A stretch of 64,000 nt of DNA from the sequence record MN655998.1; one strand, written 5' to 3'. The position numbers were made by a program, and so were the translations under genes. The notes below the pieces were generated by a model. It searched no databases. It saw only the letters and a program-made list of their open reading frames with translations, and was not told where the DNA came from. The number at the start of each line of letters is the position of its first letter. Position 1 is the first letter of the stretch. Below are positions 3,205 to 8,525 of this stretch, in pieces. The DNA comes from Escherichia phage E26.

Positions 3205-5028
3205 TTATGATTGCATCCAAATTTTGCGCTGATCTGCATCTTCACTATAGAGCAAATCGAATAGCTCTTTATAGTTTTCCGGTAACGTGATGATCTCCAT
3301 GACAGGATCGTTGATCACGCGATGATAGTCTGATTCTGTGAGCGATGCTAAACCTTTGATATATCGAATGTTGTAACCTTTGATATTATCTCGGTCGTTC
3401 TCGAAATCTTCTAGGTCATAATACCATCGAACATCATCACCTTTCTTTGGTTCAGCAATGATAATAGGTGTTTTGATAAACCGGATTCGTCCATCTTCGA
3501 ACAATTCAGGCCAACGTGCAAAGAAAGAGATCAGACTAGGTTTAATAGACCCGATCCCGTCGGTATCCGCGTCTGTCATAATCGCAATATTTTTGTATTG
3601 CATAACTTCCAATGCATCAACACCAAATTGCAAACCAGTGATCGCCATGATGTTAAAAATTTCGGCGTTCTTAACGATCTTTGCCTCCGGTTGTTCCCAC
3701 GTTGTAAGAGTTTTGCCTCGCAACGGGAAACCGCCATGTAAATCTTGATCACGTACAGAGATCAGATAGTTGATCGCGGAATCACCTTCCGTCAAAAACA
3801 GGGTAGTTTCTGCGTCAGTTCCAATAAGGTTAGCTTTAACATGTTTTGCTACCTTAGCCCGTTTCGCTGCCTTTGCTGCCTTAGTCGCTGCCGCTTTATC
3901 GGCTGCCTCTTTGCGTGCCAGGACTACAGCAATAATAGGCATGATAATGTTTTCTTTCTTCGCAATGACTTTAGCCAGCTTTTTAAAATCAAGATCAATA
4001 TGACGCTTGATATCACCAGTCGGGTTAGTCAAGCGTTCTTTTGTCTGTGAATCAAAACGAAGGTTAGGCAATTCACGAACAATAAGAATACAGGTCAATC
4101 CAGACTTAACCGCAGCTTTAGTAACATCAACCTTATATTCTTTCTTGATTCGTTTTACAATCTCTTCACAAAGATCATCTGTCACGTAGTCTACGTGTGT
4201 TCCCCCGTTTTTGGTAAACAGACCATTAGCAAAGGATACTGATTTAAAACCTTCTCCCTCGACCGCAGGAACTAGGGCAAGTGAGAAGTTTTTATCCTCG
4301 ATGACAAACGGATCATCATTGTATAGTTTAGCATAATCCTTAAACTTGCTGGTTATCTTTTTGCCATTAAACTTAAACGTGATCTTAGGAAAGATTACAC
4401 TTAAGGAATACATACGGTCACAAATTACATCTGAAATTTCTTGTGACATGATCATGCCTTCAAAATGATCGAAATCAGGGCAGAATGTAACCTTAGTCCC
4501 TTTCAGCTTTGATGGTTTAGATGACCAACTAATATTTTCAGCGCCATTGGTGCATTGTACGGTCAATTCATTCTCACCATCGCATGTCACACCAGTAAAC
4601 CACGATGAGAAAAATGATGTGAGCGCGCTTCCTATCCCATTCATCCCCATAGTGACACGATTTGTATCATCAAAGTTAGATCCTGCTTTAGCTCGTGTCC
4701 ATGCAGCCACTGGTTGGGGAATCTGTTTCCCTTCTGGTGTAGTGACTATATGTTGTGGAATGCCGCGACCGTTATCTGTTACCGACACAATGTTATCTTT
4801 GATATCTACGCTAATAACATTAGCGTATTCAAAATTAGTGCGGATCGCTTCGTCTACAGAGTTGTCGATAATCTCATCAATAATTTTAACTAGACCGGGA
4901 ACATATGATACTTTGGTCCATTTTCCAAAAAGGAAACGATTATGTGATTCATAAGTCGTTGACCCTATGTACATCGAAGGTCTTTTAAGACAGTGAGCGC
5001 GATCATCTAACAGCAAAAATTCAGACAT
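3205..5028 (-). CDS. 39: DNA topoisomerase II large subunit, GyrB-like ATPase + Toprim (gp39 and gp60 fused)
   Basis: 607 aa; PSMYIGST, DNGRGIP, MTDADTDG motifs; length matches fused 39+60 of non-T4 T-evens. Confidence 0.9.
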   Translation of the reverse strand: MSEFLLLDDRAHCLKRPSMYIGSTTYESHNRFLFGKWTKVSYVPGLVKIIDEIIDNSVDEAIRTNFEYANVISVDIKDNIVSVTDNGRGIPQHIVTTPEGKQIPQPVAAWTRAKAGSNFDDTNRVTMGMNGIGSALTSFFSSWFTGVTCDGENELTVQCTNGAENISWSSKPSKLKGTKVTFCPDFDHFEGMIMSQEISDVICDRMYSLSVIFPKITFKFNGKKITSKFKDYAKLYNDDPFVIEDKNFSLALVPAVEGEGFKSVSFANGLFTKNGGTHVDYVTDDLCEEIVKRIKKEYKVDVTKAAVKSGLTCILIVRELPNLRFDSQTKERLTNPTGDIKRHIDLDFKKLAKVIAKKENIIMPIIAVVLARKEAADKAAATKAAKAAKRAKVAKHVKANLIGTDAETTLFLTEGDSAINYLISVRDQDLHGGFPLRGKTLTTWEQPEAKIVKNAEIFNIMAITGLQFGVDALEVMQYKNIAIMTDADTDGIGSIKPSLISFFARWPELFEDGRIRFIKTPIIIAEPKKGDDVRWYYDLEDFENDRDNIKGYNIRYIKGLASLTESDYHRVINDPVMEIITLPENYKELFDLLYSEDADQRKIWMQS

Positions 5029-5034
5029 ATTATA

Positions 5035-5778
5035 TCATTCTCCGTCAGTTCGTTTCAGGTATTCCAACGCTGCATATAGTCTTTGCGGATCGTCTTTGAA
5101 CATTCCTAATCCGGCGTTACATTTTCCACAAAGAACACCTCTTATCTTACCAGTCTTATGATTATGGTCAAGATGTTTCCACTTTTGGCGTTTTCTCTCG
5201 CCGCATCGTTCATTTATGAATTTTACACCGCATATCTCGCAATTGTCAACTCTGTCTAAAATTTCTAGCGCTTCTCGTTTTGTTATTTTTATACCATCTT
5301 CGGCGTGGTGATATGGTCTATCTAGTTCTCGTTCTCGTTTCTCAAACAATCGACACTCATCAGAACAATACTTTTGAGATGCGTTTATTGCAACAAATGG
5401 TTTACCGCATTTAGCGCATTCTCGTTCAATCTTTATGTTTTGTGTCTGATCCAACGATGCGCAACGAGAACAGCAAAATTTATGATAGCCTCTAGAGTAT
5501 GTATGATAATTTACAGGATTTGGGCATCTTGCACATTTAACTATTCCTGTTATTCCGTGGCGCAATCTATAAACAGCCTCGTTATATGGTTGTTGATTTC
5601 TGAGACCTCCATTACAGAACTTAAACTCATTCCTTATAATCTGAAATTCCGCAGGATACAATTTTTCCATTTCTGGAATTTTATTTTCTTTAAAAAGATT
5701 TGAGTTTAGTCTATTTCCGCTTTTCGCCTCCAGAACATCAACAATAAACTTTTTGATGTTCACTTTTTCTCTCTCCAA
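5035..5778 (-). CDS. HNH (endonuclease VII-type) homing endonuclease-like protein with N-terminal Cys clusters
   Basis: C-terminal HLDHNHKTGKIRGVLCGKCN motif; several CxxC pairs; track start is TTG, true start may be GTG at 5763. Confidence 0.65.
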   Translation of the reverse strand: MEREKVNIKKFIVDVLEAKSGNRLNSNLFKENKIPEMEKLYPAEFQIIRNEFKFCNGGLRNQQPYNEAVYRLRHGITGIVKCARCPNPVNYHTYSRGYHKFCCSRCASLDQTQNIKIERECAKCGKPFVAINASQKYCSDECRLFEKRERELDRPYHHAEDGIKITKREALEILDRVDNCEICGVKFINERCGERKRQKWKHLDHNHKTGKIRGVLCGKCNAGLGMFKDDPQRLYAALEYLKRTDGE

Positions 5779-5870
5779 TACATAACATAACCATAACTTA
5801 CTGCAACCGCCACAAAGACGGCTGCAACAATCATATTAAAAATTGAGTGATTGTCAAGTATATGACTCAT
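5760..5870 (-). CDS. small membrane protein (36 aa, below track cutoff)
   Basis: Hand-translated MSHILDNHSIFNMIVAAVFVAVAVSYGYVMYWREKK; ATGA stop-start overlap with upstream gene. Confidence 0.35.
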   Translation of the reverse strand: MSHILDNHSIFNMIVAAVFVAVAVSYGYVMYWREKK

Positions 5871-6040
5871 GACACGCGCACATTTTTATCATAGTACCCG
5901 CCATTAATCCCGCGCGGGGCAGTCAATCCCTGTTTGCATTCTTTACCACATTCAGGGCATTCTGCCTTTTCACGCTCGGAAATTTTGCGGATTTTCTGAA
6001 ATTGACCGTGTTCTTCACAAGAATAATCGTATAATGGCAT
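5867..6040 (-). CDS. FmdB-like zinc-ribbon protein
   Basis: MPLYDYSCEEHG...CPECGKEC; start at internal Met of track ORF 5867..6121. Confidence 0.5.
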   Translation of the reverse strand: MPLYDYSCEEHGQFQKIRKISEREKAECPECGKECKQGLTAPRGINGGYYDKNVRVS

Positions 6041-6041
6041 A

Positions 6042-6710
6042 TTATCCCCTTTGTTTCTTAACTGAATTTGGATCTGGATTTTCTGGTAGGTCTTCCAGAC
6101 CCATAGCATAACGTTGTGCATAGATTAGCATAAGAATATCGCGAGCGCAATCATGAATTGCATCATGTGCGATAAAACCATCTAGCGTACCCATTGGTAA
6201 CGGACACTCACACATCCCGCGATGCATCAATGTACGCTCAATGGCGGTGCGAACATCTCGGATATTCCAGAATCGCACAGGTTCAAGGCTGAACGTCTCT
6301 CGTGTATTGTGTGCACGGCGGATCATATCAACTAGCAACGGAATATCAAACGCATTACCGCGTGACCACATTACTGATTTAACCGGATCTACTCCTACGG
6401 CTTCACAGAATGCGTTAAAACGAGCTAAACCTTCTTTAGTTGATACTTCCGTACCATTTGTGATTAATTGCTTTCTCATGCCTTCTGAGGCGGTATTCTT
6501 CCACCATTCAACCACACCATGATCAAACACTCTTACACCTTTCTGGGAAGGAATATCAAATTTTACCAGAAAGGAATTGTCAACCAGTTCTTTAAATGTA
6601 GGTGGATTGTGCGGATCTTCTTTAAATCCGATTGCCGCCATATTGATAACCGCCCCATCAGGCGGATAACCTAAACTTTCAAAGTCAATCATTAAATCCA
6701 CTGGAAGCAT
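6042..6710 (-). CDS. dexA: exonuclease A (DEDD 3'-5' exonuclease)
   Basis: DFESLG...H motifs; T4 synteny upstream of topo II; start at MLPVDL internal Met. Confidence 0.8.
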   Translation of the reverse strand: MLPVDLMIDFESLGYPPDGAVINMAAIGFKEDPHNPPTFKELVDNSFLVKFDIPSQKGVRVFDHGVVEWWKNTASEGMRKQLITNGTEVSTKEGLARFNAFCEAVGVDPVKSVMWSRGNAFDIPLLVDMIRRAHNTRETFSLEPVRFWNIRDVRTAIERTLMHRGMCECPLPMGTLDGFIAHDAIHDCARDILMLIYAQRYAMGLEDLPENPDPNSVKKQRG

Positions 6711-6711
6711 T

Positions 6712-6954
6712 TTAAATATCCTCCGCGATATGCCGGAACAACTCCAGATCGTTTTTATCCAGAATGAAACCGCTACAATCAATAATCCCGTTACCGTAAT
6801 TATCGGTTAACAGTCGTTCCGTTGCCATGTATGCGCGTACTTTGTTGTTAAAATTCATTACATGTTGTGCATAGTCACAATGAATCTTTTGACGGTTCCA
6901 CGCGACAATTGATTGTAGATGTATTACATTAGCCATATCATTAATAACAACCAT
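6712..6954 (-). CDS. hypothetical protein
   Basis: ORF tiling; no motif. Confidence 0.45.
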   Translation of the reverse strand: MVVINDMANVIHLQSIVAWNRQKIHCDYAQHVMNFNNKVRAYMATERLLTDNYGNGIIDCSGFILDKNDLELFRHIAEDI

Positions 6955-6955
6955 A

Positions 6956-7123
6956 TCAAAAACCTCTCTTAGTGAAATGCTCGATCATTTTATTGATACA
7001 TGCAGCTTCACTATCGCCGGACACGTTCCAGCCGTATAGACCCCATCTAAAGCACATGGTAACAGTTCCATTGTGACGGCTTACCGTCACATCATTAAAT
7101 TCTGGGATACTTCGCATAATCAT
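6956..7123 (-). CDS. small hypothetical protein (55 aa, below track cutoff)
   Basis: Hand-translated ORF with GAGGAA RBS; fills gap between dda and downstream gene. Confidence 0.35.
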   Translation of the reverse strand: MIMRSIPEFNDVTVSRHNGTVTMCFRWGLYGWNVSGDSEAACINKMIEHFTKRGF

Positions 7124-7133
7124 AATAATTTCC

Positions 7134-8525
7134 TCAAATATAGTCTACTCGATACCTCGCACGGGTAACACCCACATATAATAACTGCATTGCCAATTCA
7201 AAGTCAACATTGTCTGTACACATGCAAGGAGTATACAGGAACACGCGGTCTACGCTGATCCCTTGTGACTTATGAATGGTGCAAGCTGGTAATGCTTTTA
7301 CATTCAAGAACATACGCTTCATCGTCCAGAATGAATCCCAATCTGGTTTAAATTTTGGATTCTCTTTCTTCATTTCGCGATATTGTCCGGCGACCGTATT
7401 CAGATAGATAGAGAAAATGTTCTTCTGACGTTGTTCTGTCAGAATGTTGATTTCTACTAAATCCGGTTTATCTGTAGTGATTCCGACTGCATCTAAACCG
7501 ACTTTCTGATTTAGGATTTCTTTGTCTTCGTCATCATCGACGCTTTCCACTTTCAGAGTATAGCCTAAAACTGGTTGCGGATCTACCCCCGTGCAACGTA
7601 ATGTAAATTCACGCGGTATAACCTCTTTAACCCGGATCATCTCACCATTGTTAAAAATAACATTGGGAATTTTCTTCCCGCGTTCATCTCGCAGATATTC
7701 GATCAACGGTTCCTGAGTAACCAGAATTTCATCTACAATCACTGGTTCATCGGTGTTATAAACGCGCTTGCGCACAATTTCATTGAGTTTTTCGACGCTC
7801 TTGTTAGTGTAAGCCAGAATACGGTTTTCTAGAAGGTCTTCCGGCGTTTTAACGGTTTCGAAATAATGCTTCATAAACTCCGGCAGAGTTGAGCTATGGA
7901 ATACACCCTCGTTACCGCACTGCTTTTCGAATACCCATTTACCGTTACGGACAGCGGTCGCCACATCAATGATCGGTGCATTAGATCGTTTAATTTCTGT
8001 CAACTCCACGTTTTGAAAATTTTCATCCGTGAAGAAAGGAGAAATTGACGTTGCACCGCTCGGATCAACTGGTCGTAACTGGTGCGGATCGCCAACTGCA
8101 ATAACAACAATTCGACCGTTGATACTCTTCATGAGAATATCAAATAGTTTCTTATCGACCATACTCGCTTCATCAACAATGATGATCTGAACATCATCTA
8201 GCTTAGGAGTATCTTTTTGCTCAAATACTTGAGTATCTTCATAGTTGGTCGGGTTTAGTCGCAGTAGTGCATGTAAAGTAAATGCTTGACGACCTACCGC
8301 TTTACTCAAAACTTTTTTAGCCTGGTGGGTAGGCGTTGCCAAAACCACACCAGTTACACCACGGCGGACCATTTCCTGAACAATGAATTTCATCATTGCG
8401 GTTTTACCAGTACCAGCCGCACCCCGGACAGTTGTATGCTTCTTTTGTTCAATGCGTTTCATTAGAACATCAAAAGCATGTTTTTGCCCGTCTGTTAACA
8501 TATCGAAAGTTAATACTCTGCTCAT
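7134..8525 (-). CDS. dda: Dda DNA helicase (SF1)
   Basis: Walker A GAAGTGKT; KRSNAPIIDVATAVRNGKW; LYVGVTRARY C-terminus as in T4 Dda. Confidence 0.9.
   Translation of the reverse strand: MSRVLTFDMLTDGQKHAFDVLMKRIEQKKHTTVRGAAGTGKTAMMKFIVQEMVRRGVTGVVLATPTHQAKKVLSKAVGRQAFTLHALLRLNPTNYEDTQVFEQKDTPKLDDVQIIIVDEASMVDKKLFDILMKSINGRIVVIAVGDPHQLRPVDPSGATSISPFFTDENFQNVELTEIKRSNAPIIDVATAVRNGKWVFEKQCGNEGVFHSSTLPEFMKHYFETVKTPEDLLENRILAYTNKSVEKLNEIVRKRVYNTDEPVIVDEILVTQEPLIEYLRDERGKKIPNVIFNNGEMIRVKEVIPREFTLRCTGVDPQPVLGYTLKVESVDDDEDKEILNQKVGLDAVGITTDKPDLVEINILTEQRQKNIFSIYLNTVAGQYREMKKENPKFKPDWDSFWTMKRMFLNVKALPACTIHKSQGISVDRVFLYTPCMCTDNVDFELAMQLLYVGVTRARYRVDYI

Follow-up and report, generated by a model that had tools for sequence, protein, structure and literature searches.

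The 64,000-nucleotide stretch of Escherichia phage E26 DNA (MN655998.1) analyzed here, referred to as the window, contains an open reading frame (ORF) for an endonuclease VII-type protein directly upstream of gene 39, and the ORF is a likely homing endonuclease gene. The region around the ORF matches 58 Krischvirus records at 94-99% identity, and the window is DNA of Krischvirus, RB49-like coliphages of the T4 type. On the minus strand (marked (-) after coordinates), the genes follow in the order dda, two small ORFs, dexA, 39.2, a hydrophobic micro-ORF, the endonuclease ORF, and gene 39 (Table 1). Gene 39, which encodes the large subunit of topoisomerase II, is the presumed target gene of the neighboring endonuclease.

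Table 1. Features of the gene 39 locus and the gp49 ortholog, in window coordinates; aa, amino acids; nt, nucleotides
Feature	Position	Strand	Match or basis
dda	7134..8525	-	
Two small ORFs	between dda and dexA	-	
dexA	6042..6710	-	
gp39.2 zinc-ribbon gene	5867..6040	-	
Resident hydrophobic micro-ORF, 36 aa (RB49p006.1 homolog)	5760..5870	-	phrog_25974 E=4.9e-23
Carrier block replacing 19 nt of empty sites, net +739 nt	5023..5780	-	alignment
Endonuclease coding sequence, likely GTG start, 242 aa, TGA stop at 5037..5035	5035..5763	-	Pfam and PHROG
Two tandem treble-clef zinc fingers, CxxC...[FY]C[CS]xxC, aa 77-101 and 116-137	5353..5535	-	
Catalytic beta-beta-alpha-metal (DHHRN / Endo VII) core, aa 175-216	5116..5241	-	
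Gene 39, fused 39+60 type topoisomerase II large subunit, 607 aa	3205..5028	-	Pfam DNA_gyraseB, HATPase_c, Toprim; phrog_543 E=1.3e-248
First ~720 nt of gene 39, 'W' haplotype (GHKL ATPase part)	4309..5028	-	sliding/per-bin identity
gp49 ortholog, 157 aa	39039..39509	-	44.6% identity to T4 gp49, full length

The open frame of the endonuclease extends from a TTG codon (5035..5778(-)) and would specify the 247-aa product described in the initial annotation, a reading that begins five codons too early. The GTG at 5763 is the likely start and the product most likely has 242 aa, because this codon lines up with the start codons, ATG or GTG, in every homolog (M-[ND]-[IL]-K-[KQ]-F), is preceded by GGAG at a spacing of 9 nt, and is used in most of the GenBank annotations examined. 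The GenBank record of MIZ4 annotates a fused 834-nt ORF instead. The 36-aa hydrophobic ORF and both of its reported overlaps are seen in the sequence: its start overlaps the stop of the zinc-ribbon gene in ATGA (5870..5867), and its TGA (5762..5760) overlaps the GTG at 5763 in GTGA. The 247-aa reading and the GTGA coupling, which had been proposed side by side, are mutually incompatible because the GTGA start gives 242 aa.

Occupied and empty sites at the gene 39 junction

Comparison of gene content across relatives, the check suggested in the initial annotation, reveals that the endonuclease gene is not present in all of them. Twelve of the 58 Krischvirus records carry the gene, 45 have exact empty sites, and one, phiS, has an alternative endonuclease. 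In the empty sites both flanks are matched and the span between them is exactly 739 nt shorter; in phiS the span is 1925 nt. Alignments of the window and JEP8 with the empty sites of G37-3 and RB49, extended to 10 carriers and seven empty sites, place the junctions at identical positions throughout. As aligned, the event is a substitution and not a clean insertion, in which the carrier block takes the place of 19 nt (AAGAGGTTTAATAATGAGT) of the empty sites. The block carries the endonuclease's own ribosome-binding site (GGAG, 5777..5774), gives gene 39 a new ribosome-binding site (GGAG, 5043..5040), and changes codon 2 of gene 39 from AGT to TCT, both of which encode serine.

The initial annotation described an endonuclease VII-type, free-standing, homing-endonuclease-like gene inserted upstream of topoisomerase II together with a coupled micro-ORF. 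The core of this description stands, while the micro-ORF has to be removed from the insert. The micro-ORF is annotated in the endonuclease-free phages RB49, Phi1, GEC-3S, and G37-3; it has homologs in RB49p006.1 and phi1p006.1 and a PHROG family of its own (phrog_25974), and it overlaps the start of gene 39 by 8 nt in empty-site phages. Judged by these alignments, it is a resident Krischvirus gene of which the insertion rewrote only the last six codons (YVMKRFNNE to YVMYWREKK, each followed by the stop codon). The run GGAGAGAGAAAAAGTG at the junction of micro-ORF and endonuclease (5764-5777(-)) varies in length among carriers. MIZ4 and MIZ5 lack 2 nt and are annotated with one fused 277-aa ORF, and Skers and JK32 lack 1 nt, which lengthens the micro-ORF to 43 aa. 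These length variants may tune or break translational coupling.

The endonuclease gene is intact, full length and without stops, in 10/10 Krischvirus copies examined and in two metagenomic copies. The ratio of nonsynonymous to synonymous substitution rates (dN/dS) between endonuclease haplotypes is 0.08-0.25, values which indicate that the gene is under purifying selection.

Signals for expression of the gene are sparse. T4-type late promoters (TATAAATA) are absent from the vicinity of the gene, the two present in the whole window both being far off, and sigma-70-like matches occur at background level (21 versus 17.9 in shuffled sequences). The endonuclease gene is without an obvious promoter of its own and is probably co-transcribed with the 39.2, micro-ORF, and gene 39 unit. 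A hairpin that hides the ribosome-binding site, as in T4 mobE, was considered and rejected: the 106 nt at 5735..5840(-) fold with -27.6 kcal/mol (z=-3.9), but the strong hairpin formed is confined to the resident micro-ORF, and the GGAG and GTG stay unpaired. The start region of gene 39 folds no better than shuffled sequences. The hairpin itself (5798-5830(-), 14 pairs) is conserved, with identical sequence between the carriers and empty sites aligned, and a promoter-like TTGACA-16-TATGAT (5857-5830) just precedes it.

Full-length homologs of the ORF are found directly upstream of gene 39 in other T4-like lineages, at least four in number, with 37-77% identity and stop-to-start distances of -4 to +6 nt. 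These are the Gaprivervirus phages VR7, VR26, RZ, and TH15 (40-45% identity), the 169-kb metagenomic T4-like contig L021 (62%), the short metagenomic contig L022 (77%), and the metagenomic contig L023, which has different upstream genes (39%). When 1.84 billion representatives were scanned exhaustively and without a profile, about 68,000 Endo VII-domain proteins were obtained, of which only about seven clusters (50% identity) align with the query along almost all of its length; by this count, the ORF family is a small subfamily. All subfamily members for which the context was examined adjoin gene 39. The gene is optional in Gaprivervirus too, occupying the site in VR7 and missing from VR20, VR25, and several others. 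Most of the difference between the occupied VR7 and the empty VR25 falls within the initial ~60 nt of gene 39, where the changes are largely synonymous and include two TCN-to-AGY serine switches. In phiS (PP449093.1), an unrelated 179-aa endonuclease with HNH_3 and AP2 domains (L004:1546-2085) is present at the same junction, equivalent to window 5029/5781, and the start of gene 39 bears its own foreign tract of ~120 nt. On this comparison of sites, the junction between the micro-ORF and gene 39 is an insertion hot spot for two unrelated endonuclease families.

The sequence that adjoins the insert on the gene 39 side is itself divergent and foreign, a feature that the initial annotation overlooked. 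The window is 96-100% identical to RB49 per 100-nt bin on both sides of the insert and 64-87% identical in the first ~700 nt of gene 39. Among 17 genomes, the form of this tract seen in the window (W) is present in 10/10 carriers, and the form seen in RB49 (R) is present in the empty-site phages with the exception of G37-3. W and R differ at about 24% of nucleotides and at 18% of amino acids over the first 240 residues, and beyond about nt 720 of gene 39 all 17 genomes are again 95-100% identical. In this set, the endonuclease gene is tightly tied to one version of the 5' end of gene 39. Divergence in the flanks is 1-3% whatever the carrier status, and the relationships among the flanks are not those of the block: the window and JEP8 fall together in the block but in neither flank. 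This discordance between flank and block groupings implies that the block moved among Krischvirus backgrounds. The W tract is presumed to be a product of co-conversion or an immune allele, and the target likely lies within it.

Comparison with gene 39 of Gaprivervirus, L021, and L022 identified no donor of the W tract, as W is not nearer than R to these sequences apart from a modest exception in L022, to which W has 87% and R 80% amino-acid identity. At the start of gene 39, TTAATAATGA is present in both empty alleles (Krischvirus and VR25) and altered in both occupied alleles. It may be hypothesized as a candidate target, a shared AT-rich 10-mer in AT-rich DNA being weak evidence.

Domains and family of the endonuclease

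The protein comprises a largely helical N-terminal region (aa 1-70), two zinc fingers that are presumed to form a DNA-binding module, a linker helix between the second finger and the C-terminal core, and the catalytic core itself. The several CxxC pairs mentioned in the initial annotation number five (aa 77, 98, 116, 175, and 212 in 242-aa numbering), and the C-terminal nuclease motif HLDHNH...GKIRGVLCGKCN is found in the product as described. The core residues are C175-x2-C178, D199, H200, N201, H202, R208, C212-x2-C215, and N216, all of which are invariant in a nine-sequence homolog alignment down to 37% identity. Seven of the eight finger cysteines (C77, C80, C97, C116, C119, C133, and C137) are likewise invariant across the nine homologs. 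The AlphaFold model is confident, with a mean predicted local distance difference test (pLDDT) score of 84.7. The predicted catalytic and zinc-binding residues are all intact.

The core matches Pfam Endonuclease_7 well beyond chance (E=1.4e-16; 60.6 bits, where the cut-off is 23.6), and the PHROG matches of the ORF are endonuclease VII and HNH families. Within this superfamily, the DHHRN family was defined from F-CphI by the residues CX2-4C, DH(D/N)H, R, and CX2C followed by N (Fang et al. 2018, PMC6083498). Every defining residue of DHHRN / PF02945 is present in the ORF, and its core, with the helix that follows, is 49% identical to F-CphI over 47 aa (E=6e-12). Among proteins of solved structure, the nearest is Hpy99I (phmmer E=1.6e-9), which is also the top Foldseek match with a probability of 1.00; the remaining PDB matches from Foldseek are to zinc fingers and are not significant. 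T4 endonuclease VII is alignable only over aa 195-225 (E=5e-3), and the phage's own gp49 is 37% identical over 38 aa (E=4e-4). The C-terminal position of the motif and the greater nearness to F-CphI and Hpy99I than to gp49, as judged by pairwise E-values, place the ORF with the homing-endonuclease clade. The absence of Pfam matches to HNH, HNH_3, and AP2 in the ORF sets it apart from the canonical HNH and HNH_3-AP2 class. The N-terminal 75 aa and the zinc fingers have only sub-threshold Pfam matches (Zn_ribbon_recom, YacG, NinG, and DUF2116).

Homing and its alternatives

The ORF is likely a free-standing, selfish, and optional homing endonuclease gene of the DHHRN / Endo VII-motif family, located between the micro-ORF and gene 39. 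The hallmarks of such genes are found at the locus, namely precise presence or absence between conserved genes and co-inheritance of a neighboring tract (~720 nt here, ~60 nt in VR7, and ~120 nt in phiS). The VR7 homolog, gp6, has been placed in the endonuclease clade as a probable free-standing homing endonuclease (Fang et al. 2018, PMC6083498). Free-standing endonucleases that are promoter-less, translationally coupled, and GUG-started have been described in T4, as have distant cleavage sites (PMC2988022).

The proposed mechanism begins with the early transcript of the 39.2, micro-ORF, and gene 39 unit, from which the endonuclease gene would be read. Low-level translation from the GTG would occur by coupling to the stop of the micro-ORF through GTGA, in a manner like that reported for mobA and mobE of T4. 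During mixed infection, the enzyme would nick or cut the allele that has no endonuclease gene, within or close to the early part of gene 39, and the break would be resected and repaired from the carrier genome. Repair would copy the endonuclease gene along with the adjacent 5' stretch of gene 39, consistent with intronless homing with co-conversion. The carrier allele would escape cutting through the sequence changes that it has at the junction and beyond it on the downstream side.

Several observations weigh against homing. Cleavage, target site, and homing are predictions for the ORF and its close homologs alike, and the sole characterized relative, F-CphI, shares just the catalytic core of ~50 aa. 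General homologous recombination is rampant in T4-like phages and could spread the block without endonuclease activity. The boundary between W and R, at about nt 720, is at the same place in all carriers and in the empty G37-3. The W allele of G37-3 is set apart from those of occupied sites only by the replaced junction and by three places in the first 21 nt of gene 39; the carrier changes relative to it include TTA to TTG at L5 and L7. The shared boundary and the presence of W in an empty phage imply that the tract may be older than the endonuclease or go back to one event and not to repeated homing. The synonymous divergence (dS) between carrier haplotypes is 0.49 in the gene 39 tract and 0.12 in the endonuclease, such that the tract and the endonuclease have no single common history; over nt 1-720 of gene 39, the window and JEP8 differ from the other carriers at 8% of nucleotides with a dN of 0. 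On these alignments, W alleles older than the spread of the endonuclease fit at least as well as conversion from R to W.

The alike boundary and unlike synonymous divergence also favor an inactive or passive passenger, in which ordinary homologous recombination and deletion between co-infecting Krischvirus alone produce the presence/absence pattern and the linked gene 39 haplotype, and there is no endonuclease-driven drive today. The 1- and 2-nt deletions in Skers/JK32 and MIZ4/5, which disturb coupling, point in the same direction. Opposed to this, 12/12 copies examined are full length with complete catalytic residues and a dN/dS of about 0.1, which argues for maintained function. The position beside gene 39 is kept across lineages that are only 37-45% identical, which is hard to explain without target specificity, and a second, unrelated endonuclease is found at the same junction. 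A mere passenger is considered unlikely.

The distinct and presumably immune gene 39 allele of carriers, the old association with one essential gene, and the documented role of T4 free-standing endonucleases in marker exclusion (PMC2988022) speak for a domesticated nuclease for competition or exclusion. Such an enzyme would cut the gene 39 region of co-infecting relatives, thereby excluding their markers or crippling their topoisomerase to the benefit of the carrier phage, and would be more than a selfish gene. Mechanistically, it is indistinguishable from homing on these data. The gene has a frequency of only about 20% in the genus, none of the flank clades shows signs of its fixation, and domestication is rated distinctly improbable.

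Several GenBank records name the product 'endonuclease VII' or 'recombination endonuclease', and the Pfam and PHROG assignments, with catalytic residues as in T4 gp49, agree with a second recombination endonuclease VII, that is, a paralogous resolvase of Holliday junctions or branched DNA for replication, repair, or packaging. The ORF is not the phage's resolvase because a full-length gp49 ortholog is encoded in the same window (Table 1). Resolvases have an N-terminal core and a dimerization domain (PMC6083498), whereas the core of the ORF is C-terminal behind zinc fingers, is nearer to Hpy99I and F-CphI than to endonuclease VII, and gives no full-length alignment with gp49. The gene is also not universal, being absent from about 80% of otherwise near-identical phages and hence dispensable. 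A role as a second resolvase is very improbable.

Least probable of all, with hardly any weight assigned to it, is that the full-length subfamily is a long-standing, gene 39-specific partner beyond a transient parasite, whose fingers might contact the GyrB-like gp39 with or instead of DNA and would so couple endonuclease activity or topoisomerase regulation to the neighboring gene product: the fingers resemble YacG, a GyrB-binding gyrase inhibitor, below the Pfam cut-off (E=0.0017, 18.5 bits against 25.5) and match 4tma_K in Foldseek over 35 residues (probability 0.89), but the second finger and Endo VII core are also found in phages without topoisomerase (PHROGs 2914 and 2633), and far more likely the YacG likeness is generic treble-clef similarity and the fingers are generic DNA-binding modules.

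Comparison with known systems and further polymorphisms

The DHHRN homing-endonuclease family and the prediction for the VR7 homolog are already known, and the ORF adds a further member. F-CphI of cyanophage S-PM2 is the founding characterized member of the family (PMC6083498). Like the ORF, it is free-standing in a T4-like phage, has a C-terminal core of CxxC, DHxH, R, and CxxCN, and is found beside its conserved presumed target. F-CphI differs in having only 142 aa and no counterpart of the ~170-aa N-terminal region with two zinc fingers, such that only the core is alignable; its target is psbA and it acts jointly with a group I intron, whereas no intron is involved at the locus of the ORF. 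The Gaprivervirus proteins, VR7 gp6 (VR7ORF006c) and its homologs in VR26, RZ, and TH15, share full length, domain order, and position with the ORF and are optional in their genus. They belong to another genus and subfamily (Tevenvirinae), with 39.1 and an intergenic terminator and promoter upstream in place of a coupled micro-ORF, and the divergent tract of gene 39 linked to VR7 gp6 is much shorter, at only ~60 nt.

MobA and MobE of T4, which are free-standing HNH endonucleases, resemble the ORF in being promoter-less and expressed from transcripts of their neighbors, in overlapping or being coupled with an upstream ORF, and in being inherited with flanking markers; mobA, moreover, has a predicted GUG start and is associated with the topoisomerase large-subunit gene (PMC2988022). 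Both belong to another nuclease family with an N-terminal HNH domain and a C-terminal DNA-binding region, and mobA is located between 39 and 60, splitting the gene, whereas the ORF lies upstream of gene 39. Hpy99I (PDB 3fc3) has the same active site and is a sequence-specific duplex cutter, but this bacterial type II restriction enzyme is paired with a methylase, differs in its N-terminal domain, and is not mobile. T4 endonuclease VII (gp49) shares the zinc-bound beta-beta-alpha-metal motif, and differs as a structure-specific resolvase with an N-terminal core and a dimerization domain.

The one characterized homing endonuclease of the DHHRN family, F-CphI, comes from a cyanophage of the sea, which is an inconvenient laboratory subject. 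The same catalytic family in easily grown E. coli phages provides a tractable coliphage model. A natural allele set is already sequenced, consisting of occupied sites (the window, JEP8, and G2248), an empty site with the same allele (G37-3), and an empty site with a different allele (RB49). This set makes the cleavage site, the changes that confer immunity, and the length of the co-conversion tract in an essential topoisomerase gene testable. The locus shows cleanly how an allele of an essential topoisomerase gene can be linked to an endonuclease; beyond the hot spot, no new biology is implied. Annotations are corrected in two respects, as the ORF is not a 'recombination endonuclease VII' and the micro-ORF is resident.

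Further variation is seen around the locus. The shorter gene 39 annotation of 1770 nt in FL04, G5211, MIZ2, and G2248 was considered as a mutation and rejected in favor of a gene-caller choice; in G2248, the only one of the four for which the translation was checked, the frame is open from the ATG that the window uses. Just downstream of gene 39, at the equivalent of window ~3200, G5211 (L011:340-903), G37-3, and JSE have a 187-aa HNH_3(-AP2) ORF like JSE ORF5, which is without counterpart in the window and RB49, and gene 39 of G5211 is flanked by endonuclease genes on both sides. Upstream of dexA, between the two small ORFs (window ~6954/6956), a 177-nt ORF (phi1p009.1) is present in Phi1, GEC-3S, G37-3, Skers, and Delraymugoa and without counterpart in the window and RB49, a further small presence/absence polymorphism. 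The dda-proximal segment of FL04, equivalent to window 6700-7850, is ~14% divergent from all other Krischvirus, compared with 1-3% elsewhere, and looks like a separate mosaic block.

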